A DNA stretch of 57,060 nt from positions 1 through 57,060 of IMG/VR virus record IMGVR_UViG_3300019093_000011, one strand, 5' to 3'. A program made the translations under genes and the position numbers. The DNA is from a virus (taxonomy: Duplodnaviria > Caudoviricetes). The notes beneath the pieces were generated by a model. The model saw only the letters and a program-made list of their open reading frames with translations. It was not told where the DNA came from and did not search any database. Shown one piece after another: positions 6,745 to 24,746 of the stretch (within the stretch, counting starts at the first letter, position 1; each line of letters begins with the position of its first letter).

Positions 6745-7368
6745 ATGAATATTATTAATGAACGTACTGAACCTGCTATTATAGATTTTGAAATTCCATC
6801 TTTATCAAAAATTGATTTTGATAAGTTATATAGTTACCCCCCAATAGAGCAGAAGTATAATACATTGTACGTGAATCCTGGAAGGTATGATTTACCATAT
6901 CATACTCCAGAACATATTGAGTTATGCCACTTTCTTGAAAGAGACTTATATGATATTTTTAAAAAACTTATGGAAATGGATCAATTTCGTTGGCCAATTT
7001 TAGATACAGGGTTTCAAAATTTTGATTGTTTTTATAGAACAAAAGTTAAAAAAGACCAAGGACTATATCTATCAGTAATGATATACAAGCCTGGCTTTTC
7101 TATGCCGTGGCATTTAGATAATAGATTTGCTGTACTTAACGGAATTATTAATGTCAATGACCATGAAACACAGACATGTTTTTCTACAACAGGCCAAGGA
7201 TGGAATCAGGATACTCAATGTCCTTTAAATGAACACATGATTATTCATCGTGGCACAAAAAAGAAATTTCAAGGAACTGCTTGGACAAACAATGAATTAG
7301 CTTGGCATTGTGTTCCCAAAGTACCTATAGAAAGAAAAGTAATATTATTTGGTGTTAACCTTAGGTAG
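6745..7368 (+). CDS. 2OG-Fe(II) oxygenase superfamily protein
   Basis: WHLD (HxD), distal WH, and a downstream R (ERK) in a beta-rich C-terminal half. Confidence 0.75.
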   Translation: MNIINERTEPAIIDFEIPSLSKIDFDKLYSYPPIEQKYNTLYVNPGRYDLPYHTPEHIELCHFLERDLYDIFKKLMEMDQFRWPILDTGFQNFDCFYRTKVKKDQGLYLSVMIYKPGFSMPWHLDNRFAVLNGIINVNDHETQTCFSTTGQGWNQDTQCPLNEHMIIHRGTKKKFQGTAWTNNELAWHCVPKVPIERKVILFGVNLR

Positions 7369-8044
7369 GACGTAAGTATATAATACACATATCACACCCT
7401 TGAATAATTTCCCCGTCTGGCCGTGTAATAGTTGACGGGCATTCTAACGAAAAAGTTAAATTATTAGCAATACAAAAATCTAATGTCGTTTTTTTAATTC
7501 CCATATATACACAGTCATCAACCAAAATTATTCCTGATTTTTTCATATTAGCATGTGCATATGACAAATCAGCTAACAATGAATCAGTTGAATGGTCGCC
7601 GTCTATTATAATAAGATCAACATTAGCTACATCCATGGTATGCCAATTTCCCTCAAATAGAGCAAGATTGGTACAATTATTTTTATATATCTGTTGTATT
7701 TTTACAAGGGAATTAGCTTGAATGTTAACAGCTGGATACCAATCCTGTATCATTTTTAAATGTTTGTCATGATCAAGTTTTGTGAAATACACTTCAAAAT
7801 CATTTATATCGGCTGTAACAATTGATTTATCGGGAAAAATTTTAGCCAGTTTATACGCTGTACCACCAGCAAAGGTACCGATCTCAAGTATATTATTTAA
7901 ATTATATTTGTTTATAGTATTAATAATAAATTCTAATTTAACCCCTCCTATTAAAGATAAGGGGTTATTTATGAATATTTCTTCTATAAAAAAGTTATCT
8001 AACTGATTATCAAATTCATACATATTAAATCCATTCTGTGCCAT
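7361..8044 (-). CDS. Class I SAM-dependent methyltransferase (Methyltransf_24-like); start may be ATG 8023
   Basis: ILEIGTFAGGT, IIDGDHS and GIILVDD motifs. Confidence 0.85.
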   Translation of the reverse strand: MAQNGFNMYEFDNQLDNFFIEEIFINNPLSLIGGVKLEFIINTINKYNLNNILEIGTFAGGTAYKLAKIFPDKSIVTADINDFEVYFTKLDHDKHLKMIQDWYPAVNIQANSLVKIQQIYKNNCTNLALFEGNWHTMDVANVDLIIIDGDHSTDSLLADLSYAHANMKKSGIILVDDCVYMGIKKTTLDFCIANNLTFSLECPSTITRPDGEIIQGCDMCIIYLRPT

Positions 8045-8657
8045 CTTTATTAAAGCTTTTTCCGCTATCTGTTTTTTTCAAAGTTGATATCACTTTATGA
8101 ATTTGTTCTGAATCCTTTACATAATCTTCTAATGGAAACCATGATGGGTTTAATGCAAAAAATATACCTCGATGATTTTGACTAAACCCGCGCATTATGT
8201 ATAAGTTCGTTGCTTTGTGGCTAGCATAGCCAGCATGTTTAAAATATTCAGGATTATTGCCGACTATTAAACCGGTCATCATCCATCCTATTTTAGTATC
8301 ATCAGTGATAGACTGAGATAAATGTTTAATCAAAAAATATGGAAGTTGACAATCGATCCACATGTTACGATTCCATGAATCAATTGAATATTCATTACCG
8401 GGGATAAACCAATATTCGCCAACGCTACCACCTGCATTTTGATTGAAAAAAATCAAATCATAAGTTACTGAGTTGTCAATTAAAGTTTGTAATTGCTCTA
8501 GATTTGATTCATGCCAGTTAATCTTTATTACGTTAACGTTAGGATATTCAAAATTAGAACCTGTAACAAGGTCAACTTGGTATCCTATGTCAGATAAATG
8601 TTTAGTAAATGATGCTCCCCATTTGGATCCGCATCCTAATAATAGTGCTTTTTTCAT
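8025..8657 (-). CDS. Short-chain dehydrogenase/reductase-like Rossmann protein
   Basis: N-terminal LLGCGSKWG glycine loop, FFNQNAG, catalytic YASHK (YxxxK). Confidence 0.75.
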   Translation of the reverse strand: MKKALLLGCGSKWGASFTKHLSDIGYQVDLVTGSNFEYPNVNVIKINWHESNLEQLQTLIDNSVTYDLIFFNQNAGGSVGEYWFIPGNEYSIDSWNRNMWIDCQLPYFLIKHLSQSITDDTKIGWMMTGLIVGNNPEYFKHAGYASHKATNLYIMRGFSQNHRGIFFALNPSWFPLEDYVKDSEQIHKVISTLKKTDSGKSFNKDGTEWI

Positions 8658-8662
8658 AAGTA

Positions 8663-8670
8663 TATTTATA
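8663..8670 (-). promoter_or_regulatory. T4-type late promoter TATAAATA, 5 nt before ATG 8657
   Basis: Exact consensus; minus strand reads TATAAATA-TACTT-ATG. Confidence 0.6.
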
Positions 8671-9856
8671 TTAACTTTAGGTGAGGTATAATATTTAAAG
8701 AATCAGTTCCTCTAATGGAATCTAATTGTTTTGCATAATATACTGCCTTCTGAAATTCAGTAGGATCAGATATTTGATTCAAATTTTTATTAATACTGTC
8801 AAACATATTATCTGTTAATTTATTTTTGATTAACCAAACTTTGTGTATGTCATATAATGTTTTAAATTCTTCTTTAACTGTATCAGGAACATGATGCATT
8901 TGCAAATGATGTGGGAATGCAAGAATATTAAGTTGCCATTGATTAGGTAAAATTTTAGCATGATCATATAACAATCGTTGAGTTTCAAATAAGTTTAAAA
9001 TATTAAACACACTAACAGTAGGGGTAATCTGAATATTAATTGTAGGACATTTGGTTTTTATTAAATTCAAGTTGTATAATAAACGTTCCCATTTTTGCCC
9101 CCATCTGATCCATTCGCCTACTTCTTTGCAGCCGTCTACACTAACCAACAAGGTAATATTTTTAAATTTAGTCCATAGATCTATTACATGTTGTCCCTTA
9201 AATTCTAATTCACTTAAATTAGTTGTATAGTTAATAGATTGATTAGTTTTATTATGTTCAATCCAATAATTCATAATTTTCCAATGATCTTCCATTAATA
9301 ATGGTTCACCACCAGCAAAGTTAACATTAGCCACTGTCATTAAATATGGTTGTAATTGTTCCCATACATCTAATCTAAGATTTTCTTCATGGTAAACTAT
9401 TTTTTGTAGTTTTTTCCAATCATTAACCCATTTACTACTAAACGTAGGACTACATGTTACACATGCAAAATTGCAAAGATTGCTATATCTAATATCTAAA
9501 TATCTTAATTGAAAATCGTCAACTCCACCGTCACTATTAGTCATTGATGTGATTTCTTTCCAATCCAAATAATATTTAAATCCATCAGTTCTCATTGAGG
9601 GCTGTCCCAATGATTCTAATTTATAACATTTTTCACATCCAGAAGTTTCTTTTCCTTCAATCATGTTTTTACGAATAGTTTTTATTAAAGGACTATTGAT
9701 AGTATCATTTATAGAATTATTTTTTATGTTGCCGATTGGTTGTTCACAATCAAACATACAACACGGAAATGCTTTACCATCAGCCCATGCATGTAAATGT
9801 ATCCACGGATAGACACATAACGTATTATTAGAGATAGTGTTGTTTAAGGATGTCAT
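8666..9856 (-). CDS. Radical SAM enzyme with N-terminal twitch/SPASM domain (rSAM-1)
   Basis: CVYPW...PCC...CEKC, then CNFACVTC and FAGGEP. ATG 9856 preferred to 9904 to limit overlap. Confidence 0.9.
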   Translation of the reverse strand: MTSLNNTISNNTLCVYPWIHLHAWADGKAFPCCMFDCEQPIGNIKNNSINDTINSPLIKTIRKNMIEGKETSGCEKCYKLESLGQPSMRTDGFKYYLDWKEITSMTNSDGGVDDFQLRYLDIRYSNLCNFACVTCSPTFSSKWVNDWKKLQKIVYHEENLRLDVWEQLQPYLMTVANVNFAGGEPLLMEDHWKIMNYWIEHNKTNQSINYTTNLSELEFKGQHVIDLWTKFKNITLLVSVDGCKEVGEWIRWGQKWERLLYNLNLIKTKCPTINIQITPTVSVFNILNLFETQRLLYDHAKILPNQWQLNILAFPHHLQMHHVPDTVKEEFKTLYDIHKVWLIKNKLTDNMFDSINKNLNQISDPTEFQKAVYYAKQLDSIRGTDSLNIIPHLKLI

Positions 9857-10997
9857 ACCATTCAGGGAACGTTGCGGGGAAACTTTCTTTTCTATATGTA
9901 TCATGTTCTTGAACCTTCTTCAAAAACAATTTTATTTTATTTGGATTAGGGTTGCTTCCAATAAAATTTAAAATATTTAATATATCTGAATTTTTATCTT
10001 TTACGTGATCAAGTTTTTTTAATAATATTTCTTTTATTTTAGGATCTAAAGCATCAACACTATACTCGTTTGGAGAATGTAATATATTATACCAAACACT
10101 ACACCCTAAGTTATCCATAATTTCTGTAGTAATTTCATCTAGATAAAAAACATTAAAATTACTAATAGTAGCGTTTGTTGTTAGTTTAATCCATTTGACT
10201 TGTTGTAATAACTCGATATTGTTTTTTATTATTTCCCATTTATTAGGATGGCGTTGATAATTATGACGTTCATTAATGTCATCTACACTAATTTGTAAAT
10301 CAACTAATTTAAATTTTTCCCATAATGCTAATTGTTCTTGATTAGGAATAATTGTTCCATTTGTGTTATAATGAATCTTTTGATTTTTACTATACCCCTT
10401 TTCAACACTAAGTTTTAATATATTCCACACGTTTTCAATAAGCAATGGTTCTCCACCATATAAATCAAAAGATTCAATATTTGGTAATACTTCTAATAAC
10501 TCATCCCAAATTTTCTCTCCTGTATTCCATGATTGACGTTGAATTTTGAATGTATTTTTAAATTGTTGAATAGATTCTGTTCTACCACTAACGGTAAACC
10601 ATTCGTTTTCCCATTTACTACTATTCCACGGGTTGCAAATTCTGCATTTCAAATTGCAAAGGTTTCCCATTTTTAAATCTATGTTCTTTAAAATAATGTC
10701 AGGTTTATATTGCAAAGTAAGTTGCGTTTTGCTATCACGTACTCGTTTACTTTCTTTCCCAGCTCGTTCCTCATCCCAACAAAAATTACAAGCAGGATGT
10801 TGAACACCATCCATCAATGAATCACGCAAAGAATTCATCCAGTCACTATTAAATGCTGAATCAATTGAGTTAATTGGAACTGATTCAGATATAATTGATT
10901 GGTTACTCATGCAACAGGGTTTATAACTACGTTGGTCACCTGTACTATCTATGCTTAAAGAATTAAACGGATGAATACAAAAAGTATTAATATGCAT
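9828..10997 (-). CDS. Radical SAM enzyme with N-terminal twitch domain (rSAM-2)
   Basis: CIHPF...PCC...CNFC; CNLKCRIC; YGGEP. Confidence 0.9.
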   Translation of the reverse strand: MHINTFCIHPFNSLSIDSTGDQRSYKPCCMSNQSIISESVPINSIDSAFNSDWMNSLRDSLMDGVQHPACNFCWDEERAGKESKRVRDSKTQLTLQYKPDIILKNIDLKMGNLCNLKCRICNPWNSSKWENEWFTVSGRTESIQQFKNTFKIQRQSWNTGEKIWDELLEVLPNIESFDLYGGEPLLIENVWNILKLSVEKGYSKNQKIHYNTNGTIIPNQEQLALWEKFKLVDLQISVDDINERHNYQRHPNKWEIIKNNIELLQQVKWIKLTTNATISNFNVFYLDEITTEIMDNLGCSVWYNILHSPNEYSVDALDPKIKEILLKKLDHVKDKNSDILNILNFIGSNPNPNKIKLFLKKVQEHDTYRKESFPATFPEWYDILKQHYL

Positions 10998-12210
10998 TAT
11001 ACCATTCCTCAAACCATGGATGTAAGTCTAGCAAAGATTGCTTTCTGCTGTTATCCATATATTTCATACGTTCAATAAATGCTTGTTGTATTTCTACAGT
11101 AGGGTCTTCAGCATTGTATATTTTTTCAAAAGTATGTAATGTGGTAGGTGGAATATATCTAGAATTTTTAGAATCGTTGTATATATTCATGGCATTTTTT
11201 GAAAACACTTTACGAACAGAATGTGGCAATACCCATGGACTCATTGAGTTTGGATAATCAACATTTATATACATCATACTTATTTTCAAATCTTGAACTA
11301 TTATTTCAACTGACCGTTCTACATTCGGCATTGTAAGATTGCTTAATGTTTGGTGTACGCCAATTTGTCGACTTGTTGGGTTTTCATTTCCCCAAATTTT
11401 TAATTCTTTTAAATTATTGTAAATCTTATCCCACTTAGCAGGCCAACGAACATATTCATAAAATCCTTCAACGCCATCAATACTGGCATTAACTTGTACA
11501 GATTTAAATTTATCCCAAGTATTATACCAACGGGTGCCAATAGTTGTTATGTTGGTATTGTATTGTAGTTTAATATTTTTTGCAACGTCCAGTTCAATGA
11601 GTAAGTCTAGCAATTCTGCTTGTTCAGGTATGATTAACGGCTCTCCGCCTAGAAGATGTATATGTTTTATAGTTGATGCATTTGCACGTACTAAATCAAA
11701 AAATCTACTATTAGTTAACCATGATTCGGGCTTTATTGTAATTGCATTATTTTTAAATTTATTATATTCTTCTGCAAACAAACTACTAGAATGAGGTCCA
11801 CACATCCTACATGCCAAATTACATTTAGTACCTAAATCAATTTCTAATTTTTCTATTACAGGGGAATGGTCTCCGTTTAATATTTTTTCATACCGTTCCT
11901 CTGAATATTTGGCGTAGTGGGGGGTTATAGACATTTGTCTATAGCTATGCTGCCCAATATTTTCTAATTCCCAACATCTATCACATTCGGAAATTCGTTC
12001 ATTATTTAATAAACTTTTACGGATTCTTTCAAGAGCAGTTCCGTTTAACCAATTAATATCCGTACGTTCAGTAACATAAGGCGGGCTATCCTTCCCATTT
12101 AAACCATTATTAGAATTACAACATAATCGTTGACTGCCGTCTGAACCAATACTTAGTGAGTTAAAAGGCAATACACATATCGAATTGTTTTTCATATCGT
12201 ATTTCATCAT
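10987..12210 (-). CDS. Radical SAM enzyme with N-terminal twitch domain (rSAM-3)
   Basis: CVLPF...LCC...CDRC; CNLACRMC; LGGEP. Start taken at the ATGA overlap. Confidence 0.9.
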   Translation of the reverse strand: MMKYDMKNNSICVLPFNSLSIGSDGSQRLCCNSNNGLNGKDSPPYVTERTDINWLNGTALERIRKSLLNNERISECDRCWELENIGQHSYRQMSITPHYAKYSEERYEKILNGDHSPVIEKLEIDLGTKCNLACRMCGPHSSSLFAEEYNKFKNNAITIKPESWLTNSRFFDLVRANASTIKHIHLLGGEPLIIPEQAELLDLLIELDVAKNIKLQYNTNITTIGTRWYNTWDKFKSVQVNASIDGVEGFYEYVRWPAKWDKIYNNLKELKIWGNENPTSRQIGVHQTLSNLTMPNVERSVEIIVQDLKISMMYINVDYPNSMSPWVLPHSVRKVFSKNAMNIYNDSKNSRYIPPTTLHTFEKIYNAEDPTVEIQQAFIERMKYMDNSRKQSLLDLHPWFEEWYNAY

Positions 12211-13595
12211 ATGTTTTTGCACTCATTAATAAATTCTATATACTCTGGAAATACTAAATTGAAATCAGTTTTTCTACGACGGTCGTGCTCTATAAAAAAT
12301 GCTGCAAAATCAGATTTTGCATTTGCTAGCTCATCATCAAACAATTTGTATTGCTTCATAGAAGATAATACACGTTCTAATCTTTCAACTTCAACTTTAG
12401 TGAACCCTGTATAATTTTCAGTTATATTTGACTTCATAAATTTAATATCTTCTTCTAAATATTTTTGAAAACTATCAGGCAATATATTAATGGTCCAATG
12501 TGCTGGTTCTTTTAAATGAGGCGTACAAAAATCTATCCGTTGTTGTGTCTGACTAAATTCTTGACGCCATTCTAAAATTTTTTCTAATAACGATCTAAAA
12601 GAAGCGACCGCTAAATTATTGTAAGTAATCATAATTTCTATACTAGCATCAACATTTTTAAAATCATATAATATAGTTTTGAAATTTTCTTCCCATATGC
12701 TACAATCTAAACCAAATCTAATATATTCTGCTGGTGCTCCCCATGTATCTAAACTTACATGCATACGGAAATTTTTGATACATTTAGTTTGAAGTAAATA
12801 TTGAACTTTCTTCCCTAAACGTTGAATCAATGCAGGTTTCACTCCCAAATTACTGTTAACTAACAATGTCATATTAGGGCAGGGATCTTTTTCTAATTTA
12901 TCTAATAATTGCCAAGTATTCTGATTTAGCATAGGCTCTCCGCCAGTGATGCGTAACGTTTGCAAATTTAATTTAAGTGTCGGCCACCATTGCCAAAATG
13001 CTTTTACGTATGGATTATTTTCATCATTGCTTTCGTAGTATTCTCTATCTTTAAGAAAATCTATACTGTATTGTTTACTTTTTATAGGGTAATCACCATG
13101 CTCTTTTATTTCTTCAATCCAAGAATTACTTACTGTTGGGGTACAATATCCGCATTTAAAATTACACACATTTCCAAAATTAACTTCAATCAATTTAGGG
13201 TCATAATTTGCATCCCATGGTAATTTTTTAATAATATTATAATCATCACCATTCATTGCTGGTTGAACATGGGTTGTTGTATGATGACTACTATGAATAA
13301 CTCTATCAGATAGATGACCAGTGTCTTCCACTTTCCAACAATAATGGCATTCTTGCGGTCTACCGCCCTCTAACATTATTTTTCTCTGTTCTTTTTTATA
13401 TTGTGTATTATGTAACCCACTAGGATTATTTTCAATATCGGCGGGCTGTATTTTATGAGGGAACGGGTGATAGCAACTGTGATTATCCCCAGATTGCAAA
13501 TACAATGTTTGTTGAGTCCATTTTAATAAACAAAATCCAGGGCCAACTTTATCCAATTGTAATTTAGTTTCATTAATGTGTTCAATAGAATTCAT
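12207..13595 (-). CDS. Radical SAM enzyme with N-terminal SCYHP-type twitch domain (rSAM-4)
   Basis: FCLLKW...SCYHP...CHYCW; CNFKCGYC; TGGEP. Confidence 0.9.
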   Translation of the reverse strand: MNSIEHINETKLQLDKVGPGFCLLKWTQQTLYLQSGDNHSCYHPFPHKIQPADIENNPSGLHNTQYKKEQRKIMLEGGRPQECHYCWKVEDTGHLSDRVIHSSHHTTTHVQPAMNGDDYNIIKKLPWDANYDPKLIEVNFGNVCNFKCGYCTPTVSNSWIEEIKEHGDYPIKSKQYSIDFLKDREYYESNDENNPYVKAFWQWWPTLKLNLQTLRITGGEPMLNQNTWQLLDKLEKDPCPNMTLLVNSNLGVKPALIQRLGKKVQYLLQTKCIKNFRMHVSLDTWGAPAEYIRFGLDCSIWEENFKTILYDFKNVDASIEIMITYNNLAVASFRSLLEKILEWRQEFSQTQQRIDFCTPHLKEPAHWTINILPDSFQKYLEEDIKFMKSNITENYTGFTKVEVERLERVLSSMKQYKLFDDELANAKSDFAAFFIEHDRRRKTDFNLVFPEYIEFINECKNI

Positions 13596-14863
13596 ATTAA
13601 TTTAGCATCTTCTGCATTAGGGTTTCCTAACTCACCGTTATCTAGTTTATTCCATTCTTTCCCACAACACGAAGTACATTGTTTACTACGCATATTATGA
13701 TCTAATTCAAATGAACGTGGTAGCAAGCGTTGATATAAATCACTTTCAATAATAGAGGATAAACTATGATTATGTAAATCAATTGATTTCCTGCCTCCAT
13801 ATAATTCCAACATTTTCATAAAGGAATCGTCACTTTTTATTGATGGTAAGGTTGGTGAATTGCCTCCAATAAATCTATTAGGTTCCCCACCTAAAAAACA
13901 GCAAGGATATACTTCACCTTCTGCACTTACAAAAATTTCATCATTGTAACCGTATCCGCCCTTTTTAAAGTCAATAGCCCTGCAAGCAATTTCTATTTTT
14001 TTAAAATTAATTTCTATTGAATTGCCAGTTTTAGGATCAAATTCTCTATACATATCAGAATTTTCTCCATTAACAGACGGATACATTGCATCAAATTCTT
14101 CGTTAGAAATATAATTAGGAACAATACCGATAATCTTCTTTAAAGTATCAGCATTGTTATTTCGTAACGATTCATCTGTTGGTTGTTGTAATAGATAATT
14201 ACTGTTTTTATCTGGCACTACGTAATACCCTAATCCGGCTGAATCATAATTACTCCATCTAGTTGTTTTTTTAACGTTGAAAGTTGTAAATCCCATTTCT
14301 TTAGCCATTTGCCTAGCAGTATCAATTTGATGTGCGTTATGTCTGAATGCAAGGTAGTCCCAATGAGCCACTCCCCCAGCTTCTCTAAATGCCTTCATGT
14401 TTGCTAATATTTTATTAAAATTTGTATTTCTTCTGTATAGATGATTAGTATCTTCTAGCCCGTCAACGCTGAATACGCAATAATCTCCTCGTCTTTGCCC
14501 GTTCATTAATAATCCTAACTCATAGAACCATTCAGGAGATCTAGCACTGGCATTTGTATGCATTACTAATGCCATATTAGAATTGTTTTCTCTTAAATAT
14601 TTATAAATTGGTAAAGTATCTTTAGCGGCGATGGGATCACCATAATTTCCACAGGCATATAATTTCTTTAATTGCGATACAAATGCAGGATCGAACCATT
14701 TTATAAAATCATTATATTTAATATCTGTTTCTACAAGATTAGGATTCAAATCAGCACCAGAGTTAATATACCTAGGACACATAGGGCAGCCTGCATTACA
14801 CCTATTAGTAATTTCTAAATGTATTCCATTAATTTCTTTATATGACCATAGTCCGTTATTCAT
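13592..14863 (-). CDS. Radical SAM enzyme with C-terminal twitch/SPASM domain (rSAM-5)
   Basis: N-terminal CNAGCPMC and GNYGDP; C-terminal IAC...GEVYPCC...CTSCC. Confidence 0.9.
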   Translation of the reverse strand: MNNGLWSYKEINGIHLEITNRCNAGCPMCPRYINSGADLNPNLVETDIKYNDFIKWFDPAFVSQLKKLYACGNYGDPIAAKDTLPIYKYLRENNSNMALVMHTNASARSPEWFYELGLLMNGQRRGDYCVFSVDGLEDTNHLYRRNTNFNKILANMKAFREAGGVAHWDYLAFRHNAHQIDTARQMAKEMGFTTFNVKKTTRWSNYDSAGLGYYVVPDKNSNYLLQQPTDESLRNNNADTLKKIIGIVPNYISNEEFDAMYPSVNGENSDMYREFDPKTGNSIEINFKKIEIACRAIDFKKGGYGYNDEIFVSAEGEVYPCCFLGGEPNRFIGGNSPTLPSIKSDDSFMKMLELYGGRKSIDLHNHSLSSIIESDLYQRLLPRSFELDHNMRSKQCTSCCGKEWNKLDNGELGNPNAEDAKLI

Positions 14864-15687
14864 AGATAAGTTTCCTTGTTGTTTAACGTTTGTGCAATTT
14901 GCTGTGCAAACACTTCATGTGTTTCATTATCAAAATGTCTATCTGGAAGATAATTTATTGCACGCATGATACATTTAGGATCTATATTTAATATATTACT
15001 TCCTATAACTAATTCAGAAAATGCTAGATTATCAATTATGTTTAACTTTCGCATCTGATTCCATATAGAAATTGTCAAGAATTCGGGAGCAGCAATTATT
15101 GGGAAAGACCCTGTAAATGATTTAACCACGTTGTTCAATAAGGCAACTTCTAGCAACCATTTAATCAATAAATCCTGATCAGTAAATATTAAGATTGATT
15201 CCCTTATAATAGGTGCCAGTTTAGTACTATAATGATCATGCCCCAATACAGTCGATTCTATCCACGCACGATGGTCTCCGTCCAAAAATGATTTATTTTT
15301 GGCATGAATAGTATTAGTAATTGTGGTTAATCTAGTAGTCTCAGTTAGCATTATTATTACTTTTTTTGGAGTAATGCCCTCCATCTGTAATTTTGTTAAA
15401 TCAAGCATCGTTCGATATAATATCGAACCCATACTACTGCCGCCTTCTGCTGCATTAATTATTTCTATACCTAATATTTTGCTTAGGCGCGCTGGCCAAC
15501 TAAGTTCTTTGTTTCTTACGTTGTACATTGAACAAATTTTAGGATCTTGAATTACATTAAATCGAACTTTGTTAAAATAATCTTTTGTTGAAATATTATT
15601 TTTATTATATTTTTCAAAATCAGGCACAAACTCATGATCTGCTAATCCTATGCCAGCAGTAAAACTATCACCATTAACATAAATCAT
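14860..15687 (-). CDS. SGNH/GDSL-fold esterase or acyltransferase
   Basis: NGDSFT (block I), INAAEGGSS (block II), DRHF (DxH). Start set at MIYVNGDS. Confidence 0.7.
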   Translation of the reverse strand: MIYVNGDSFTAGIGLADHEFVPDFEKYNKNNISTKDYFNKVRFNVIQDPKICSMYNVRNKELSWPARLSKILGIEIINAAEGGSSMGSILYRTMLDLTKLQMEGITPKKVIIMLTETTRLTTITNTIHAKNKSFLDGDHRAWIESTVLGHDHYSTKLAPIIRESILIFTDQDLLIKWLLEVALLNNVVKSFTGSFPIIAAPEFLTISIWNQMRKLNIIDNLAFSELVIGSNILNIDPKCIMRAINYLPDRHFDNETHEVFAQQIAQTLNNKETYL

Positions 15688-17107
15688 GTTTTTTTCTTTC
15701 ATATGTTTCATAAGTTTCTTTACATAATTTAGCAAATGATTCATACAACGGAAAAGTTTTAATTAAATCAAGTTTACTTCTCTTATCATATTCAGTAAAG
15801 AAAACATGAAAATCTCTTCGTCCGCGGGTAATTAAATCTTCTGTGATTTTTGGGCCGCCCTCATTGAAGTAATCCATAACACGTTTAAATTTTTCAATTT
15901 CAACGTTGGCAAATTTAGTTGGATCATAATTGTCACCTTGACAGTTTAACCGCATAAATTCTAAATCATCTTCTAAATATTTACCAAAAGAATCTTTTGG
16001 TAAAATATTGATCATCCAGTGTGGAGGTTCTTTTAAGTATGGGGTATCAAATGTGATTCTTTGCCAATTATTGGTACTATATTTGGCACGTAACTCAAGT
16101 ATCTTTTCTAGTAATGGACGAAAGTATGCTACGCATAATATATTATAAGTGATCATAAACCCAATTTGAGAATTAGGTAGCAATGTCAAAAATTTATTTA
16201 AATTAGTTTCCCATAATTTACAATCAAGTCCTCGACGCATGTATTCTGCTTGCTCGCCCCAACTGTCTATACTGGTAAACATCTTAAATCCTTTAATCTT
16301 TCCAAGAGCTAACAGTTTTTTAACTTGAGTAATCATTCTCTCTACTCTAGAAGTAGCAACCCCTAAATTACTATTAATTATTAAAATTAAATTAGGGGCT
16401 GGTTCTTCCTCTAATTTATCTAATAATTTAAAAGTACTAGGATGCATTAATGCTTCACCACCGGTTAAGCGCAGTACTCTTAGATCATTACGTAAACTAG
16501 GCCACCATTCCCAAAATGCAGCAACATAGGGATTATTTTCATCATCAGGATAATAACTACCACTATCTAAAAATTCAATCCCATACTGATTATATGTTAA
16601 ATCGTAATTACCCTTCTTTTTAATTTCTTCAATCCATAGAGTACTGGACTGCGGGCAACAATATCCACAATTAAAATTACAGTTGTTACTGAAACTCATT
16701 TCTAAATAATAAGGATTATAATTTTTATCCCATGGTTGATTTTTTATTAATTCAATTTCTTTATCAATGTCTTGTAGCCATTCACTTGAATTATGCAATG
16801 CTCTATCACTAAAATGTTCGCCGGTCAAATCCTCTATATTCCAACAATAATAACATTCATCAGGGCGATTGCCTTCTAGCATAGTTTTTCGTTGTTCTTT
16901 TTTCCATTTAGTATTATGTAAAGCTGATACATCAACTTTTATTTCTTCTAAAGGTACTTTATTTGGCCTTGGATGATAACATGAATGATTATCCCCGGTA
17001 TGTAAGTATAAAGTCTCATGTCTCCATTTCTGGAGGCAAAATCCTTTGCCAACTGCATTTAATTTTTCTTTAACTGATCTTAATTTATTGATATAATTGT
17101 CGTTCAT
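15674..17107 (-). CDS. Radical SAM enzyme with N-terminal SCYHP-type twitch domain (rSAM-6)
   Basis: FCLQKW...SCYHP...CYYCW; CNFNCGYC; TGGEA. Clear paralogue of rSAM-4. Confidence 0.9.
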   Translation of the reverse strand: MNDNYINKLRSVKEKLNAVGKGFCLQKWRHETLYLHTGDNHSCYHPRPNKVPLEEIKVDVSALHNTKWKKEQRKTMLEGNRPDECYYCWNIEDLTGEHFSDRALHNSSEWLQDIDKEIELIKNQPWDKNYNPYYLEMSFSNNCNFNCGYCCPQSSTLWIEEIKKKGNYDLTYNQYGIEFLDSGSYYPDDENNPYVAAFWEWWPSLRNDLRVLRLTGGEALMHPSTFKLLDKLEEEPAPNLILIINSNLGVATSRVERMITQVKKLLALGKIKGFKMFTSIDSWGEQAEYMRRGLDCKLWETNLNKFLTLLPNSQIGFMITYNILCVAYFRPLLEKILELRAKYSTNNWQRITFDTPYLKEPPHWMINILPKDSFGKYLEDDLEFMRLNCQGDNYDPTKFANVEIEKFKRVMDYFNEGGPKITEDLITRGRRDFHVFFTEYDKRSKLDLIKTFPLYESFAKLCKETYETYERKKHDLC

Positions 17108-17108
17108 T

Positions 17109-18674
17109 TTAAAAATCTTTATTATAAATTACGTTACACTCTTCTAAATAAAACTTTAACTCAGGGAAAATTTCATTAAAATTTTTATTCTTTCTTTTAT
17201 CATATTCAGTGATGAATAAGTAAAAATTCAGTTTATTTATTCTCTTAATCTGCTCTGGCAAGTCGTCCTCCATAATAGCTAAATCTCTTTTTAATTTTAA
17301 AATTTCATAAGGTTTGAACCCTTCAAGAGTCTCACTATAATTTTCATCTTGAACATTATCTTCCATAAATTTAATGCATTTTTTAACTTGGTCAATACCA
17401 TATTTTCCAGCATTTTGAACACTAAGCCAGTCTGGTTTATATAATATAGGCACATCAAACCATATTCTTTGAAATTTTCTTCTTAGAATAGGAGGATGAT
17501 CTATTCCATGACTTGGTGGGGAATTAACAAATTTTTCCTTTTGTGTTCTCCCGCCAAACTCTCTTCTTAATTCTAAAATTAATTCTAAAAAATTTTGTAA
17601 TTTTGGTATACTTAAAATATTTAAAGTATTAATAAAGCTAACAGTGGTATACTCTGTTTCATTTAAAAATCTTCTTAGATTTTTTAAAAGAGTTGGATAA
17701 CTTAATCCAGATCTTATATATTCTGCTTGCTCAGCTACAGAGTCTAAACTAATATATAACCAGAAATGTTTAAAGCCCTTATCCACATAGCAATGATTAC
17801 CGCTATGCTCGTTAAAATTATCTTTGTCCTCATAAGTGCGGATAGCTTCAATTGCTTGCACTTTACTAATAAATCGATCAAACAATTTAGGATCTGGCGG
17901 ACACATATTACTGGTAATACTTAGTTCTAATTGTCCGTGAGGATTTTCATTCACGTAGTCCAATACCTTGAATGTATTTTTATCCATCAATGGCTCGCCA
18001 CCGGTCATACGAAACACCCGCAGATTACGATATATCTCTGGCCACCAACGCCAAAAAGCTTCAACATATGGATTTTCTTTATTAGACAACTTTAATGGCA
18101 TAAGACCTTTTCTTTCTAAAGCTTCCAAATTATTATGAGTTTTAAATCCAGTTTCAGAATATATTTCATATGGTCCAAATTGCTTTATTTCATCTTCCCA
18201 AGTGGTACTAAGATGGGGACTACAATACATACATTTAAAATTACAACTTTGATTAAAGTTAACTTCTACATATCTAGGCTTTATGTTTTCATCTAAAGGA
18301 TTTTGTACAATTTTATCAAAATCTGGGTGTGCCCACCATTCACTACTTCTATAATGTCTATCACTCAAATGACTTTCATCATTTTCACTTTTGGCGTCTT
18401 CAATTTTCCAACAATAAGAACATCCATCTGGTCGTTCTCCAGAAATCATCTGTTTTCTATCGTGTAATTTAATTACAGTATTATGCAAAGCGCCTGGATT
18501 TTTATCTAAATTCTCCAAAGGTATCCTGTGTGTGGGAGGATGGTAACAACTTTGAGTTAACCCTTGTGGTAAATGCAAACTTACCTGTGACCATTTAGCT
18601 AAACAAAATGATGGACTTATTTCGTTTAACTTTTGTCTCATTAATTTTGCATGATTGTGATATTCACTAGACAT
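17109..18674 (-). CDS. Radical SAM enzyme with N-terminal SCYHP-type twitch domain (rSAM-7)
   Basis: FCLAKW...SCYHP...CSYCW; CNFKCMYC; TGGEP. Confidence 0.9.
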   Translation of the reverse strand: MSSEYHNHAKLMRQKLNEISPSFCLAKWSQVSLHLPQGLTQSCYHPPTHRIPLENLDKNPGALHNTVIKLHDRKQMISGERPDGCSYCWKIEDAKSENDESHLSDRHYRSSEWWAHPDFDKIVQNPLDENIKPRYVEVNFNQSCNFKCMYCSPHLSTTWEDEIKQFGPYEIYSETGFKTHNNLEALERKGLMPLKLSNKENPYVEAFWRWWPEIYRNLRVFRMTGGEPLMDKNTFKVLDYVNENPHGQLELSITSNMCPPDPKLFDRFISKVQAIEAIRTYEDKDNFNEHSGNHCYVDKGFKHFWLYISLDSVAEQAEYIRSGLSYPTLLKNLRRFLNETEYTTVSFINTLNILSIPKLQNFLELILELRREFGGRTQKEKFVNSPPSHGIDHPPILRRKFQRIWFDVPILYKPDWLSVQNAGKYGIDQVKKCIKFMEDNVQDENYSETLEGFKPYEILKLKRDLAIMEDDLPEQIKRINKLNFYLFITEYDKRKNKNFNEIFPELKFYLEECNVIYNKDF

Positions 18675-18680: not shown

Positions 18681-19586
18681 TTAATCTCTTTCTATTAAAT
18701 CAACTCTATTATGAGTCTGATATACTATTTTAAAAAACTTAGATTGTATACTACCCAAAGAGGCCACACTCAAATCTAAATTATTAACTAATTCTTTTGC
18801 ATAAAAATCTAATCGTTCATCAAGATCAACGTCTTTAACTTGAGCATGCCACATATCTGTTAGGTAATCAAAATCACGTACATTACGATAATCCCAATCA
18901 GTTAAATTGGTCATATAACAGCCTTGTCTAGCACCCATCATAGCCCATAAGCCGTTATTAACATCACTACCAATATTACACCAAATCATTAACCTATGCA
19001 AATTTTTCCAATGTACACCTTCTTTTACAGTGACTTTAGTTAGCTTGGCTCCACGGTCTAAGCTCATTTTTACGCCTTCCCTAAATCCTGCTCGCCATGC
19101 TTGAAAAGGTGTGGCATTGTTATGCACATCACTATAACAACCATTCATTTGAATATATTGGTTATCCCAACAGAAATCAACTTGACCTACACTGTCTTTG
19201 GGATCAGCGTTTTCATGTGTACGCATGTTCATGACGAAATCCACAGTCCAACATTTTAACCCGCCATTGCCATACATTAGGCCATTGATGATATTGTATC
19301 CACTCCAACTGATCACGCTGTTTTCTAAATTGGGATATTTGGTCATGTCTATTTCTATGTTTAGAAAATCTGAACGAACTATATTATCGCCGTCTACTGT
19401 GGTAAATCTTGGAGTTTCACTTAATTGAGCACAGGCTTTGTGGGCACTGTCACTGCCTTTGACCCCATGTACACGCTTGGCCCAAGGCACTTTGGTCAAT
19501 AAATCTGCATAATTTTTCTCAGCATTTGGTTCATCATAACTGAGATATATGATATCATAATCGAGGGGTCTAAATACTTTTGTCAT
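18681..19586 (-). CDS. GT-A fold glycosyltransferase-like protein (GT2-like)
   Basis: IIYLSYDE first strand, GSDSAH..A helix, then VDGDNIV DxD motif. Confidence 0.6.
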   Translation of the reverse strand: MTKVFRPLDYDIIYLSYDEPNAEKNYADLLTKVPWAKRVHGVKGSDSAHKACAQLSETPRFTTVDGDNIVRSDFLNIEIDMTKYPNLENSVISWSGYNIINGLMYGNGGLKCWTVDFVMNMRTHENADPKDSVGQVDFCWDNQYIQMNGCYSDVHNNATPFQAWRAGFREGVKMSLDRGAKLTKVTVKEGVHWKNLHRLMIWCNIGSDVNNGLWAMMGARQGCYMTNLTDWDYRNVRDFDYLTDMWHAQVKDVDLDERLDFYAKELVNNLDLSVASLGSIQSKFFKIVYQTHNRVDLIERD

Positions 19587-20242
19587 ATTTTTGTTCTAAT
19601 ATATTGATATTTTTCAAAGAGTTTTCTTGCATACACACTTACTCTGACTTCATCTTCATCTACTCGATCAAATGGCAATATGCAATAAAAGTTATTGATT
19701 AATTTGGTCATAGGAATTCGTAATGTTTTATATAACACGTTAGGGTCATTAAATTCTGTTAGGTAAATCTCGTAAGTTTGATCAAAATATAATTTTCTAT
19801 CACGTAATGATCGTGCCAGTGTGCCATTAATGAATACTTTCCAGCAAGTTTCTGCATAATCTTGTACGACAGTGATATCGTTAGTGGGATCATAATTTAA
19901 GGGAACGCTTGTATCTACTGTATATGGAAATTGAAATATTACGTCATGAACACTTTGTAATATTTCCTCTTGCTCATCTAATCGAATAAATGTATAGTCC
20001 TTAGCATCTGGACTGAAAATAACTTTATAGTTATGGATAACATCTGTGCCTTCTAATAAGTTTTTAACTTGACTAAAATTCACTGTGACTGATGGCAATG
20101 TCTGATCATTGGCCATATTGGAAATGCCTTTTATTTCACCAGTTTCAGGCTCATAAAAGACAAATCTAAAATCATCTTGTTTAAATTTGTTATTGTAGGA
20201 TTTTAAATCCTCTTCAGTGATGTCCCATTCTACTTGTAACAT
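19583..20242 (-). CDS. Hypothetical protein in the glycosyltransferase block
   Basis: 219 aa, coupled to the flanking GT genes; VFYEPETGEI motif. Confidence 0.7.
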   Translation of the reverse strand: MLQVEWDITEEDLKSYNNKFKQDDFRFVFYEPETGEIKGISNMANDQTLPSVTVNFSQVKNLLEGTDVIHNYKVIFSPDAKDYTFIRLDEQEEILQSVHDVIFQFPYTVDTSVPLNYDPTNDITVVQDYAETCWKVFINGTLARSLRDRKLYFDQTYEIYLTEFNDPNVLYKTLRIPMTKLINNFYCILPFDRVDEDEVRVSVYARKLFEKYQYIRTKI

Positions 20243-21085
20243 TTAGTTAATTCCTGTGATTTTTTCTAATTGATGTATTATGTAATCTGTTAAAAAACTA
20301 TATTCTGTATAATGAAACAAGCCGTGTTGTTGGTAGTTACCTATTTTAAGTTCGCATTTTTTATTGAAATATGCCCCAATACTATCTTGCCAAGACTCAT
20401 TGGGACTCTCCCAATTTTGAATCATAGGCTTCATATGTGTAAAAGTTATGGGAGCATTTTTATGACTGATTAAATTTTCACAATCTAAAATCTTAGCAGC
20501 CAAACTCACTGTGACATCCATACTGGGAAATTTAGGATAATTTACATTGACATAACGTCCATAAAATAACTCCCAATTATTATTGATATCCTCAACCCAA
20601 TTGAAATATTCTTTAGCAAACTCGCTCTTTTTAAAATAAGCAGTGCCAAAATAAAAATTTGGCAAATTGTTACTGTCAAATGTTTTTCTATAGTATCTAC
20701 CAGTTATAGTTTTTCCTCTATAATCTAATACATTACTAGTTAACAATACGTCATAATTTTTTGCATAGTCCCACCAAAGATCTAAATTGGAGAAGGCTAA
20801 CATATCAGCATCTAATACAATAGTTTCATCGTATGGGCTGCAATGATAAAGTTTCCATCTATCTTCTGTCTTAAAGATAGTGTCTGATTTATTTTGATCA
20901 CGCCAAGGAACTGAAACTATTTGATCAAATACCAAACGATATTTGTCAGGAATTTTATTGTCAGTGACCAAGCTTATATCAGCATCAGGCATATGATTTT
21001 TAATACTTAAAGCCAACGCATAGGCAGATCGTGTATATTTTTTTAATTTAGCATCTTCAGCAAAAATTAGAAATCCTTTAGACAT
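20243..21085 (-). CDS. GT-A (GT8-like) glycosyltransferase
   Basis: AYALALSIK, SPYDETIVLDADML (DxD), FTHMK. Confidence 0.75.
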   Translation of the reverse strand: MSKGFLIFAEDAKLKKYTRSAYALALSIKNHMPDADISLVTDNKIPDKYRLVFDQIVSVPWRDQNKSDTIFKTEDRWKLYHCSPYDETIVLDADMLAFSNLDLWWDYAKNYDVLLTSNVLDYRGKTITGRYYRKTFDSNNLPNFYFGTAYFKKSEFAKEYFNWVEDINNNWELFYGRYVNVNYPKFPSMDVTVSLAAKILDCENLISHKNAPITFTHMKPMIQNWESPNESWQDSIGAYFNKKCELKIGNYQQHGLFHYTEYSFLTDYIIHQLEKITGIN

Positions 21086-23390: not shown

Positions 23391-23734
23391 TGAGTCAATG
23401 CCTCTACGCTTCTATTCTTTTTAAGCAGTTGATAATCGTTATAATAACTGTTTGAAGCAATAAAATATTGATCAATTACGTCATCTAAAAATTGTTGTAA
23501 ATCACTTACTCTAACTGGCAAGTCGTTGTCGTCAATTACCACAACATCAGTGATATTGCCCATGTCAATAAGAGTTTTCAAAAAAGTGATGAGATCTTTA
23601 GTAATAGTAAATGTGCCACCATTTTGATAGTAGACACAATCAGTATGATATTTTTCTTTTAGGGCTCGTTTTTGATTATTTAGAGTTACCATAAAGTTGG
23701 CAAACTCTAGAGCCTTTTCCAGTCTTTCGTCCAT
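23387..23734 (-). CDS. Hypothetical protein, first gene of the GT/radical SAM operon
   Basis: 115 aa with AGGAG RBS; ATGA-coupled to the GT gene. Confidence 0.8.
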   Translation of the reverse strand: MDERLEKALEFANFMVTLNNQKRALKEKYHTDCVYYQNGGTFTITKDLITFLKTLIDMGNITDVVVIDDNDLPVRVSDLQQFLDDVIDQYFIASNSYYNDYQLLKKNRSVEALTQ

Positions 23735-24738: not shown

Positions 24739-24746
24739 TATTTATA
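24739..24746 (-). promoter_or_regulatory. T4-type late promoter TATAAATA
   Basis: Exact consensus followed by GAGAGGA RBS and ATG 24723. Confidence 0.65.

Follow-up and report, generated by a model that had tools for sequence, protein, structure and literature searches.

Seven intact radical SAM (rSAM) genes, with open reading frames of 394-521 aa, lie on the minus strand at positions 8666-18674 of a 57,060-nucleotide stretch of viral DNA, referred to here as the window, and six of their products carry a twitch domain of the BtrN type that precedes the rSAM core, in a permuted domain order. The window represents 16% of the genome of an uncultured T4-like jumbo phage from a lake. The array forms the core of a 16-gene operon on the minus strand, running from 24723 down to 7361 and beginning directly after tail-fibre genes, and, as far as can be predicted, its enzymes probably edit a sugar structure made by the phage.

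The array is real. Its whole stretch is covered by reads in independent public runs (30/30 depth bins, three runs), and none of the five indels listed in public-run contigs falls within the seven rSAM genes. Six of the proteins match the NCBIfam model NF033640 (N_Twi_rSAM, twitch domain-containing radical SAM protein; cut-off 170 bits) nearly end to end at 277-350 bits, and chance is excluded because the E-values for this family are 1e-82 to 1e-104. The N-terminal-twitch proteins fall into subtype A, comprising rSAM-1 (8666..9904, 412 aa, 349.9 bits), rSAM-2 (9828..11012, 394 aa, 309.5 bits) and rSAM-3 (10987..12222, 411 aa, 300.2 bits), and subtype B, comprising rSAM-4 (12207..13595, 462 aa, 294.3 bits), rSAM-6 (15674..17107, 477 aa, 296.1 bits) and rSAM-7 (17109..18674, 521 aa, 277.4 bits). 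The seventh protein, rSAM-5 (13592..14863, 423 aa), has its twitch at the C-terminus, where Pfam SPASM covers residues 308-399, and reaches 52.7 bits against NF033640, over the core only and below the cut-off; the NF033640 core is nevertheless the best NCBIfam hit, below cut-off, in 18/18 members of its family. Met17 is a possible alternative start for rSAM-1; the length of rSAM-2 is counted from a TTG, codon 6 being an ATG with a Shine-Dalgarno-like GAGGA; and the start of rSAM-3 is uncertain, either a GTG or an ATG 4-5 codons downstream. The original prediction placed the seven genes in tandem. The number stands, but a 294-aa non-rSAM ORF on the same strand (14860..15744) splits rSAM-5 from rSAM-6. 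This is a presence/absence accessory gene, present in public runs X2 and X4 and removed exactly by an 803-nt skip in contigs of runs X3 and X5, and therefore an uninterrupted rSAM run also exists.

All seven proteins retain CxxxCxxC, as predicted, with C144, C148 and C151 unchanged across the alignment of the seven sequences. The N-terminal signatures proposed for the two subtypes, C..P(W/F)...CC...CxxC in rSAM-1/2/3 and FCLxKW...SCYHP...CxYCW in rSAM-4/6/7, are both present, and the division into three architectures, with rSAM-5 in the usual order, proved sound: identity is 24-28% within subtype A, 33-50% within subtype B (49.6% between rSAM-6 and rSAM-4) and 20-25% between A and B. Among 46 B-type sequences the invariant Cys are exactly four plus three (C24 C43 C85 C88 and C143 C147 C150); among 18 sequences of the rSAM-5 family they are C22 C26 C29 and C294 C321 C322 C396 C400. 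The six N-twitch proteins also share the predicted C-terminal tail, which is helical and ends in D-x2-R...(I/F/H)P, although R and the hydrophobic residue are 7 residues apart in this motif and not the 5 first given. Radical_SAM, SPASM and Fer4_12 are the only Pfam domains found in the rSAM proteins, and in rSAM-1 SPASM spans residues 30-94, at model positions 1-67 of 67. When the C-twitch and N-twitch families were compared with hhalign, both modules matched in swapped order (twitch Prob 93.4%, core 98.7%). Furthermore, a profile of 51 A-type sequences matches the C-terminal twitch of BtrN (E 2.5e-7 for PDB 4M7T, 1.1e-6 for 4M7S), and BtrN Cys169, 187, 232 and 235 align with the four conserved Cys of the family, including those of rSAM-1. 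SPASM and twitch domains are described as C-terminal extensions in excerpts of a review (PMC9012708), in line with what had been assumed, and the N-terminal-twitch family of the original prediction corresponds to the curated NF033640, which carries no assigned reaction.

The paralogues diverged long ago and have been kept under purifying selection. Each occupies its own deep, old clade in the tree; the rSAM-7 orthogroup, for instance, contains 48 leaves from 46 other loci with a support of 1.0, two copies in one locus and one in each remaining locus, and the best 120 of the 1940 homologues of rSAM-6 are all at least 54% identical. Against the syntenic relative L168, dN/dS is 0.11 for rSAM-1, 0.08 for rSAM-2, 0.15 for rSAM-3, 0.06 for rSAM-4 and 0.11 for rSAM-5, nowhere near the value of 1 that would indicate decaying duplicates; among relatives the median is 0.063 and none exceeds 0.5 (32 computable of 120 sampled pairs). 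Sequence evidence, as far as it goes, supports the proposal that divergent, intact paralogues have distinct roles. N-twitch rSAM arrays are also spread through uncultured jumbo phages: 99 of 101 IMG/VR pattern matches encode rSAM-7 relatives, and five related records, including a 352-kb genome with a completeness rating of 100%, hold 7, 8, 10, 12 and 14 NF033640 copies over the cut-off. Only 1 of 50,697 deposited phage records matches rSAM-7 and 4 match rSAM-1, which bears out the expectation of a mostly uncultured and often phage-encoded family. It is equally bacterial: in GTDB species genomes the pattern matched 466 times, and 364 of these hits proved to be relatives.

The operon is predicted to be translationally coupled, with intergenic gaps of at most 8 nt apart from one of 53 nt before the gene at 23387..23734, and it is probably expressed late, a timing that we infer. 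A T4-type late-promoter-like box, TATAAATA (24739..24746, minus strand), lies 16 nt before the start of the operon's first gene. The box has five exact matches in the window, four of which sit 6-25 nt upstream of start codons, and the window encodes a gp55-like late sigma factor. Tail-fibre-like genes are also found upstream in 26-28 of 80 related loci. At the other end, a convergent 207-aa gene (6745..7368, plus strand) with TATAAATA 25 nt upstream is kept beside the operon in relatives, being 71.5% identical and syntenic in L168 and present in L034 too; its product has no Pfam or PDB match. By eye, an HxD...H pattern can be spotted in it.

The remaining operon genes, all on the minus strand, suggest carbohydrate chemistry, although the GT8, SDR and SGNH assignments are weak. 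The first gene past the tail-fibre-like genes encodes a 311-aa protein (23788..24723; homologues in 29/80 related viral loci) with no Pfam family at E <= 0.01, and is followed by a gene for a 115-aa protein (23387..23734; 11/80). Next is a 770-aa GT8-like protein (21078..23390) interrupted by repeats like CBM5/12 (Pfam CBM_5_12 at 27.7 bits; a 303-nt tandem repeat, 2.4 copies, in the gene), which matches the family of the adjacent 280-aa protein by hhalign (Prob 98%, E 2.8e-13; the match spans residues 571-697, the DxD region among them). That 280-aa protein (20243..21085; 35/80) is a putative GT8-like, glycogenin-like glycosyltransferase; it has no Pfam hit, and a profile built from 20 sequences of its family matches glycogenin chains over positions 4-107 at E 4.5e-4, which is weak evidence. 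A 219-aa protein (19583..20242) has neither a Pfam hit nor a homologue in the 80 related loci. The 301-aa GT-associated protein (18681..19586) has homologues in 54/80 loci, and in 28/80 its gene is directly upstream of the rSAM-7 orthologue. It has no PDB match, and its automatic Atlas cluster name is 'Glycosyltransferase 2-like'; its family counts 1572 representatives at E <= 1e-3, and 7 of 12 scanned long forms are fused to GT-B domains (EryCIII-like_C, Glyco_tran_28_C or UDPGT). The 294-aa accessory protein is SGNH/GDSL-like: GDSFTAG, GGS and H270 are invariant in five sequences, Pfam Lipase_GDSL appears only at E 0.15, and dN/dS is 0.32 against L168. A 210-aa SDR-like NAD(P)-binding oxidoreductase (8025..8657; dN/dS 0.13) has GxGxxxG, NQN..G and Y144-x3-K148 invariant in five sequences; its homologue in the complete relative G001 sits inside the rSAM array and matches adh_short at E 1.1e-5 and 25.4 bits, just under the 26.6 cut-off. 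The last operon gene encodes a 227-aa class I SAM methyltransferase (7361..8044; dN/dS 0.27; Pfam Methyltransf_24, 36.5 bits against a cut-off of 26.3).

Together, we give about an even chance to the joint proposal that the seven genes encode working radical SAM enzymes and that the operon specifies a carbohydrate-tailoring pathway, possibly for a virion glycan. This pathway would be cytoplasmic, since in no protein of the 16-gene operon does a 19-residue Kyte-Doolittle hydropathy segment reach 1.6 (maximum 1.45). The GT8-like proteins and the 301-aa protein would assemble a sugar structure on, or add one to, a soluble acceptor. SAM would then be cleaved at the CxxxCxxC cluster of each rSAM paralogue, and the 5'-deoxyadenosyl radical would take one particular hydrogen off a sugar carbon. 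A second [4Fe-4S] cluster, held before the catalytic barrel by the four Cys of the twitch, would accept an electron, as proposed for BtrN, yielding keto or unsaturated intermediates. The SDR-like reductase and the methyltransferase might finish these, together with the SGNH-like esterase or acyltransferase in variants that encode it, through steps such as epimerisation, deoxygenation, methylation or acylation, and the likeliest destination would be a glycan on virion parts such as fibres. The carbohydrate substrate, the electron-acceptor role of the twitch cluster and the virion target are all points that we infer. A sugar context is also suggested by relatives, where a carbamoyltransferase is added in 13/80 loci and in G001, and by some bacterial loci, where the family lies beside GT2, polysaccharide deacetylase, NDP-sugar epimerase/dehydratase or nucleotidyltransferase genes. 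The tie to sugars is nevertheless indirect, because no enzyme of the family has a known reaction. Against it, in four large chromosomal contexts from bacteria (Reichenbachiella, Agaribacillus, a Bacteriovoracaceae MAG and an alphaproteobacterial chromosome) the gene occurs as a single copy among unrelated housekeeping genes and lacks any glycan gene in its vicinity, and a Bacteriovoracaceae MAG locus (L117) has eight copies beside the ribosome-associated obg, rsfS and L21 ribosomal-protein genes. The late-promoter-like box is not conserved before the homologous first gene in relatives (0/14 exact, 1/14 with one mismatch), and the best solved matches of the core are not sugar enzymes. No nucleotide-sugar synthesis gene, carbamoyltransferase or reductant gene such as ferredoxin or flavodoxin was found in the window, which is 16% of the genome.

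The solved matches lead to other accounts. With the 7-sequence profile the best is 8VPO (E 7.6e-11, core only), cited in a paper on RiPP cyclopropyl synthases (PMC10878394), and many SPASM-domain rSAM enzymes are RiPP maturases according to the review (PMC9012708). The rSAM enzymes might thus act in RiPP style on a peptide or a phage protein, such as the giant fibre proteins whose genes the operon abuts, installing cross-links, D-residues or other C-H edits, while the GT-like genes serve a separate role. Second-tier NCBIfam hits to PapB, CcpM and RumMC (E 1e-7 to 1e-10) agree with this. So do the long TPR arrays, which usually bind proteins, fused to both scanned long forms (of five) in an Elusimicrobia MAG locus (L150) and to 1/40 long forms. 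We think such an activity unlikely: the gene gaps leave no room for a precursor gene, Pfam scans returned no RRE/PqqD-type recognition domain, every named RiPP maturase scored far below its cut-off (e.g. 41 vs 340 bits), a single auxiliary cluster is present against two in SPASM maturases, and the conserved partners are GT-like, SDR-like, esterase-like, or methyl- or carbamoyl-transferases.

Viperin is instead the top solved match for the core when the 51-sequence profile is used (E 1.5e-7), and MoaA appears too; the viperin and 8VPO matches both cover parts of the proteins only, and no high-identity match to a characterised enzyme emerged. Editing of nucleotides, nucleotide-linked small molecules or DNA-attached glycans, for counter-defence or DNA hypermodification, would fit these matches, the weak hits (21-37 bits) to prokaryotic viperins in PADLOC and NCBIfam, the solitary bacterial homologues amid housekeeping genes, as expected with a universal metabolite, and the known decoration of DNA by phage glycosyltransferases, described in excerpts of PMC12619734. 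It is decidedly improbable, however, given scores far under the viperin and MoaA cut-offs (37 vs 180 and 32 vs 284), four conserved twitch Cys against the three Cys and open, substrate-binding iron site reported for MoaA (PMC9012708), and an operon that comes after late structural genes and has a late-type promoter box in front of it. Furthermore, in the relative G001, on which this test was done in place of the window phage, the only ThyA-family gene is an ordinary thymidylate synthase (342 bits vs cut-off 327), and a ThyA-family hydroxymethylase for a DNA attachment point was not found. It is highly unlikely that the operon alters a surface polysaccharide or lipopolysaccharide of the host rather than the virion, for instance in order to prevent superinfection or promote release. 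Its putative glycosyltransferases, esterase-like protein and methyltransferase do resemble surface-polysaccharide tailoring loci, and GT2-polysaccharide deacetylase or ABC-2 transporter genes adjoin some of the homologues found in bacteria; but no membrane segment is predicted in the 16 operon proteins, Pfam scans found no flippase, polymerase or polyprenyl-phosphate transferase, and serotype conversion is typical of temperate phages, whereas this phage is T4-like and no integrase was seen in Pfam and annotation scans of the window.

Our literature searches found no published description of such a phage N-twitch rSAM array, no system with many rSAM tailoring enzymes and no paper citing the NF033640 accession. 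That catalogue entry describes the twitch ahead of the rSAM core shared by the six proteins, rSAM-5 being a relative with the usual domain order; here the family is part of a phage operon, where its two old subtypes form multi-copy arrays. Virus-encoded glycosylation likewise involves phage glycosyltransferase-like genes adjoining structural genes, with glycans known on a mycobacteriophage capsid and tail tube; radical SAM enzymes are not mentioned in the excerpts describing this, and 'radical' occurs 0 times in that paper (PMC12619734). The similarity to viperin and MoaA is weak and confined to the core (MoaA E 1.5e-3 to 2e-5). To our knowledge, viperin has no auxiliary cluster. The rSAM-SPASM RiPP maturases share the core and an auxiliary Fe-S domain of the same superfamily, but bear their two clusters at the opposite end of the protein from the single one of the phage enzymes, for which no recognition domain or precursor gene was found. 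Another known enzyme for comparison is BtrN, a twitch-domain rSAM dehydrogenase from the butirosin pathway, which oxidises a sugar-like aminocyclitol and whose auxiliary cluster is thought to accept an electron, according to the review excerpts (PMC9012708). Its twitch is homologous to the N-terminal domain of the phage family but C-terminal in position, its core has no specific similarity to the family core (domain E 6.8 and 99), and its chains have 269-270 residues against 394-521 aa in the phage proteins, which are further set apart from BtrN by their conserved C-terminal helical tail.

Seven minus-strand ORFs of 394-521 aa, packed end to end in the ORF listing, encode the radical SAM proteins of the 8666-18674 stretch: rSAM-1 (8666-9904), rSAM-2 (9828-11012), rSAM-3 (10987-12222), rSAM-4 (12207-13595), rSAM-5 (13592-14863), rSAM-6 (15674-17107) and rSAM-7 (17109-18674). 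The original prediction had seven genes in tandem; the packing of the radical SAM genes stands, but a 294-aa gene of another type (14860-15744) separates rSAM-5 from rSAM-6. All seven proteins contain CxxxCxxC, the motif for the SAM-cleaving [4Fe-4S] cluster, and C144, C148 and C151 are invariant in the alignment. The NCBIfam model for N-terminal-twitch radical SAM proteins, NF033640 (model length 398, curated whole-protein cut-off 170 bits), matches six of them at 277.4-349.9 bits, from model positions 1-3 to 395-398; rSAM-5 scores 52.7 bits, below the cut-off and in the core only, and has a C-terminal match to Pfam SPASM. Pfam PF04055 (gathering score 29.5 bits) is reached or exceeded by rSAM-1 (33.9 bits), rSAM-2 (47.7) and rSAM-3 (42.9), while rSAM-4 (20.6), rSAM-5 (27.0), rSAM-6 (21.3) and rSAM-7 (21.1) fall under it, and the NCBIfam model covers all of these. 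The three architectures originally proposed are borne out by sequence identity, which is 24-28% inside subtype A (rSAM-1, -2 and -3), 33-50% inside subtype B (rSAM-4, -6 and -7) and 20-25% between A and B. The cysteine motifs and the common C-terminal tail D-x2-R...(I/F/H)P quoted with them were likewise all found in the proteins.

SPASM and twitch domains are described as C-terminal extensions in the available part of a review, the twitch being a shortened SPASM with one cluster (PMC9012708). The Pfam SPASM model aligns over all of its positions (1-67 of 67) to residues 30-94 of rSAM-1, at the N-terminus. Furthermore, a subtype A profile of 51 sequences matches the C-terminal twitch of BtrN, the radical SAM dehydrogenase of the butirosin pathway, with E-values of 2.5e-7 (PDB 4M7T) and 1.1e-6 (4M7S). 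In this alignment the four conserved cysteines of the subtype A family fall on BtrN Cys169, 187, 232 and 235, which we take to be the cluster ligands of that enzyme. In subtype B (46 sequences), C24, C43, C85 and C88 together with the three cysteines of the radical SAM motif are all of the invariant cysteine placements. The pattern C-x(n)-G-x4-C ... C-x2-C, homologous to that of the solved twitch, is thus present, and cluster binding is predicted. A SPASM domain with two auxiliary clusters has a seven-Cys pattern that includes C-x2-C-x5-C-x3-C; its CX5CX3C part is absent here, and no conserved Cys follows C-x2-C in subtype A or B. As judged by profile and cysteine spacing, the auxiliary domain of the six N-twitch proteins is a BtrN-type twitch permuted to the N-terminus. 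For every one of the 18 members of the rSAM-5 family, the best NCBIfam match is to the NF033640 core, at a score below the cut-off. With hhalign, the C-terminal twitch of this family matches the N-terminal twitch (Prob 93.4%, E 2.6e-7) and its core matches the N-twitch-family core (Prob 98.7%, E 3.2e-16). Consequently, the same two modules occur in both orders inside one operon.

The array forms the core of 16 co-directional minus-strand genes (24723 down to 7361), which overlap or are separated by at most 8 nt, with a single exception of 53 nt. Two of the proteins resemble GT8 glycosyltransferases. The profile of the 280-aa family weakly matches glycogenin (E 4.5e-4, positions 4-107), the protein itself having no Pfam match, and a 770-aa protein (21078-23390, minus strand) is related to this family (Prob 98%). 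About 500 residues of CBM5/12-like repeats, with a 303-nt period and 2.4 copies, interrupt the catalytic domain of the 770-aa protein, and this repeat type recurs in a 2899-aa fibre-like protein (31967-40666). A 301-aa protein belongs to a large family (1572 representatives) that is fused behind a GT-B glycosyltransferase domain in 7 of the 12 long forms scanned; profile and sequence searches of solved structures gave no match for this family or for the 207-aa product of a convergent gene beside the operon. A 210-aa SDR-like protein belongs to a set of 5 sequences in which GxGxxxG and the catalytic Y-x3-K never vary; it gives no Pfam match itself, and a homologue reaches 25.4 bits with adh_short (cut-off 26.6). 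The operon also contains a methyltransferase matching Pfam Methyltransf_24. The 294-aa protein, compared with SGNH/GDSL blocks I (GDS), II (G), III (N) and V (H), has GDSFTAG, GGS and the invariant His; the block V Asp is not conserved, and Pfam Lipase_GDSL matches weakly (E 0.15). Its gene (14860-15744, minus strand) is polymorphic for presence: it is found in the public metagenome runs X2 and X4, and is missing from one contig each in X3 and X5, where 14886 is joined to 15690 and six different letters stand at the junction. Within the block this gene evolves fastest, with 57.6% identity to L168, a 10,036-base metagenome contig, against 78-92% for its radical SAM neighbours.

To place the seven copies, the profile of the six N-twitch proteins was used to collect 327 ORFs of at least 100 bits from the window and 80 related viral loci, the 13 weaker of 340 matches being dropped; merging of sequences at least 90% identical left 203 for the tree. 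The rSAM-7 clade (48 leaves, 46 other loci, support 1.0) is single copy except for one locus with two. rSAM-4 and rSAM-6 pair as sister paralogues in a poorly supported clade (0.33; 26 leaves, 24 loci), and rSAM-1, -2 and -3 each lie in a deep clade of their own. L168 is syntenic with the window over the block that starts with the SGNH-like gene and ends with the convergent 207-aa gene; it does not extend over rSAM-6 and rSAM-7, and no close DNA relative of these two was among the sequences collected. Nei-Gojobori dN/dS against this contig is 0.11 for rSAM-1, 0.08 for rSAM-2, 0.15 for rSAM-3, 0.06 for rSAM-4 and 0.11 for rSAM-5, and 0.32, 0.13 and 0.27 for the SGNH-like, SDR-like and methyltransferase genes. 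Against IMG/VR relatives, synonymous sites are saturated for rSAM-4, -6 and -7, and rSAM-1, -2 and -3 were computable only at 34-39% identity; those values were set aside. Among the relatives themselves, orthologue pairs have a median dN/dS of 0.063 and none above 0.5 (32 usable of 120 sampled from 1027). The original prediction had named dN/dS near 1, the mark of decaying duplicates, as evidence that would count against it; with values of 0.06-0.15 for rSAM-1 to -5 and intact motifs, we reject decaying duplicates.

Relatives are numerous. Of 101 IMG/VR pattern matches, 99 encode relatives of rSAM-7, and 80 loci were retained. Within these 80 partial stretches, the 301-aa gene recurs in 54, GT8-like genes in 34-35, fibre-like genes in 26-28, the C-twitch radical SAM gene in 21 and a carbamoyltransferase in 13. 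Five whole related records contain 7, 8, 10, 12 and 14 genes above the NF033640 cut-off. In one of these five, a 352-kb genome rated 100% complete (G001), a 4450-aa fibre-like protein is followed by the array and then by the carbamoyltransferase. Deposited phage genomes (50,697 records) gave one match for rSAM-7 and four for rSAM-1, the latter in three Vibrio jumbo phages and one Ralstonia jumbo phage. In bacteria, 364 of 466 pattern matches in GTDB species genomes are family relatives; of 72 bacterial loci with a match of at least 100 bits, 47 have one copy and the remainder two to eight. A joint tree of the 203 viral and 101 bacterial sequences, with bacterial forms of at least 620 aa left out, requires at least 20 changes of viral/bacterial label, compared with a mean of 85 on shuffled labels. 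Because subtype-A patterns were used to retrieve the bacterial sequences, the apparent restriction of subtype B to viruses may stem from sampling.

Longer homologues also occur. Forty long radical SAM forms are mostly of about 817 aa and carry radical SAM/SPASM-type domains only, with an FkbM-type methyltransferase (PF05050) in two and TPR in one; as a guide to function, these fusion partners tell little. At roughly double the usual length, the many forms of about 817 aa among proteins P0271-P0303 may each consist of two enzymes fused in tandem. Forms of 549-571 aa have a 150-residue extension at the N-terminus that matches no Pfam family. A contig binned as a Legionellales MAG (L091) has six N-twitch radical SAM genes with a B12-binding radical SAM protein, a 2OG-Fe(II) oxygenase, an APS-kinase-like protein, an FAD/NAD oxidoreductase, a carbamoyltransferase, an Fe-S assembly protein and an NDP-sugar epimerase/dehydratase. 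It is a fuller version of the phage cassette, and may be either of bacterial origin or a mis-binned phage.

The window is an entire IMG/VR virus record (57,060 bases), rated 16% complete. Among its predicted products are a gp55-like late sigma factor, gp46/47-like nuclease subunits, a UvsW-like helicase, a gp5-like baseplate hub, a gp25-like wedge protein and tail-fibre-like proteins between 616 and 2899 aa long, which identify it as a fragment of a T4-like jumbo phage. A tRNA scan found no tRNA genes. In G001, a Gram-negative porin gene (86249-87133, equal to L167:10250-11134; Pfam Porin_4, E 1.4e-22) lies a few kb past the cassette and suggests a Gram-negative host. Sequence words of the window are found in lake-water metagenome runs, at least half of them in 5 of the 16 runs listed, and one of these five is possibly the source sample. 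Three other runs have contigs over 30 of 30 depth bins of 6000-25000, and none of the 5 indels listed against other runs lies inside the seven radical SAM genes. With the whole stretch so covered, an assembly artefact is rejected as the origin of the array. On the plus strand, overlapping ORFs of 190 and 90 aa (5921-6717) resemble a single gene broken by a frameshift. Contigs of X2 (42.8/42.8 depth) and X3 (25.9/25.9 depth) have an extra T behind 6444, so that the window at this position reflects an error of assembly or else a frameshift at strain level. By eye only, a DxD-like 'LDTD' stretch can be made out in the first part of the split ORF; no Pfam match, and no PDB match in profile and sequence searches of solved structures, was found for this ORF.

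A TATAAATA box lies 16 nt upstream of the first operon gene. The window has 5 exact matches where 16.5 are expected, a depletion, and four of the five lie 6-25 nt before start codons; by our own rough estimate, less than 2% of positions are so near upstream of a start. T4 late promoters sit close upstream of start codons. Exact copies stand at 6713, 8663, 24739 and 48198, and copies with one mismatch in the upstream regions 26592, 31939 and 54169, ahead of three further structural genes. Late expression of the operon is suggested, and no more than that, because the box is kept exactly in 0 of 14 relatives. Between 5500 and 25000, neither sigma-70 promoter-like sites (128 against 112 expected) nor terminator-like sites (7 against 7.7) are enriched.

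As the family has no member of known reaction, any functional reading rests on context. Carbohydrate tailoring is favoured by the partner genes (glycosyltransferase-like, SDR-like, esterase-like, methyl- and carbamoyl-transferase), by the fusion of the 301-aa family to GT-B domains, and by the auxiliary domain, which specifically matches that of the sugar-type dehydrogenase BtrN. At some loci, furthermore, the bacterial gene adjoins GT2, polysaccharide deacetylase, NDP-sugar epimerase/dehydratase or nucleotidyltransferase genes. Against this, four large bacterial chromosome contexts show the gene on its own, surrounded by housekeeping genes, one eight-copy array adjoins the ribosome-associated genes obg and rsfS and the L21 ribosomal-protein gene, the GT8, SDR and SGNH assignments are weak, and the nearest solved cores are those of a RiPP cyclopropyl synthase (E 7.6e-11) and viperin (E 1.5e-7). 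On balance, we put the chances that the array would act in carbohydrate tailoring at about even. Host-envelope remodelling fits poorly with a gene set that is all soluble, no segment of transmembrane-strength hydrophobicity being present in any of the 16 operon proteins. The editing of DNA glycans is weakened by the complete relative G001, where an ordinary thymidylate synthase is the sole ThyA-family member. Within carbohydrate tailoring, a virion glycan would be the likeliest target, although we hold this specific assignment to be doubtful.

A protein or peptide substrate has to be kept alive beside carbohydrate. Some family members are fused to TPR, and fibre genes neighbour the array, yet neither a precursor gene nor a recognition domain accompanies it: the Pfam scan gives Radical_SAM, SPASM and Fer4_12 only, with no RRE domain, and the tight packing of the operon leaves no room for a precursor peptide gene, though a substrate encoded at a distance, or a protein substrate, is still conceivable. 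An Elusimicrobia MAG contig (L150, 41-12727) has five tandem N-twitch radical SAM genes of 564-1128 aa; the two that were scanned have long TPR arrays at the N-terminus, a hint that some members of the family may have proteins as partners or substrates. Returning to carbohydrate, the boldest proposal, which we regard as tentative and rather unlikely, is that jumbo phages build their own glycan, probably on virion fibres, and that 6 to 14 different radical enzymes rewrite its sugars. These would constitute a new class of radical SAM enzymes for C-H editing of carbohydrates, with the BtrN-type twitch moved to the N-terminus, and would open a route to sugar structures that no known viral or bacterial glycan has.

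Because the protein family is already catalogued, the enzymes belong to a known family. Its reaction, its permuted architecture and the multi-copy phage arrays appear undescribed: the literature searched, mostly outside subscription journals, gave no account of N-terminal-twitch radical SAM enzymes or of phage radical SAM arrays. A recent study of one lineage of large phages from aquatic habitats, in the part available, discusses glycosyltransferases and never radical enzymes (PMC12619734). A catalogued, never-assayed family occurs in uncultured giant phages in sets of 7-14 copies that have diverged and are under selection; bacteria have the family too, and its permuted domain order should make it easy to recognise. 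If the products are virion glycans, they would add a new layer of phage surface chemistry that bears on host recognition and on the evasion of defences or grazers; the system would also be a large source of new C-H-functionalising enzymes. Bench testing is feasible, since two or three copies are present in each of a few jumbo phages in culture.

The highest array score with the MoaA model (TIGR02666, cut-off 284 bits) is 32.5 bits, and that with the viperin model (NF038283, cut-off 180 bits) is 37.2 bits, with PADLOC pVip scores of 21-37 bits; these viperin-core matches being weak only, a defence or counter-defence module was rejected. To our knowledge, sugar-acting radical SAM enzymes are rare, and so far single ones from antibiotic pathways. 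The resemblance to BtrN itself, an enzyme of two-electron oxidation, is selective: its core and that of subtype A give a domain E-value of 6.8, and the significant match lies in the twitch region only.
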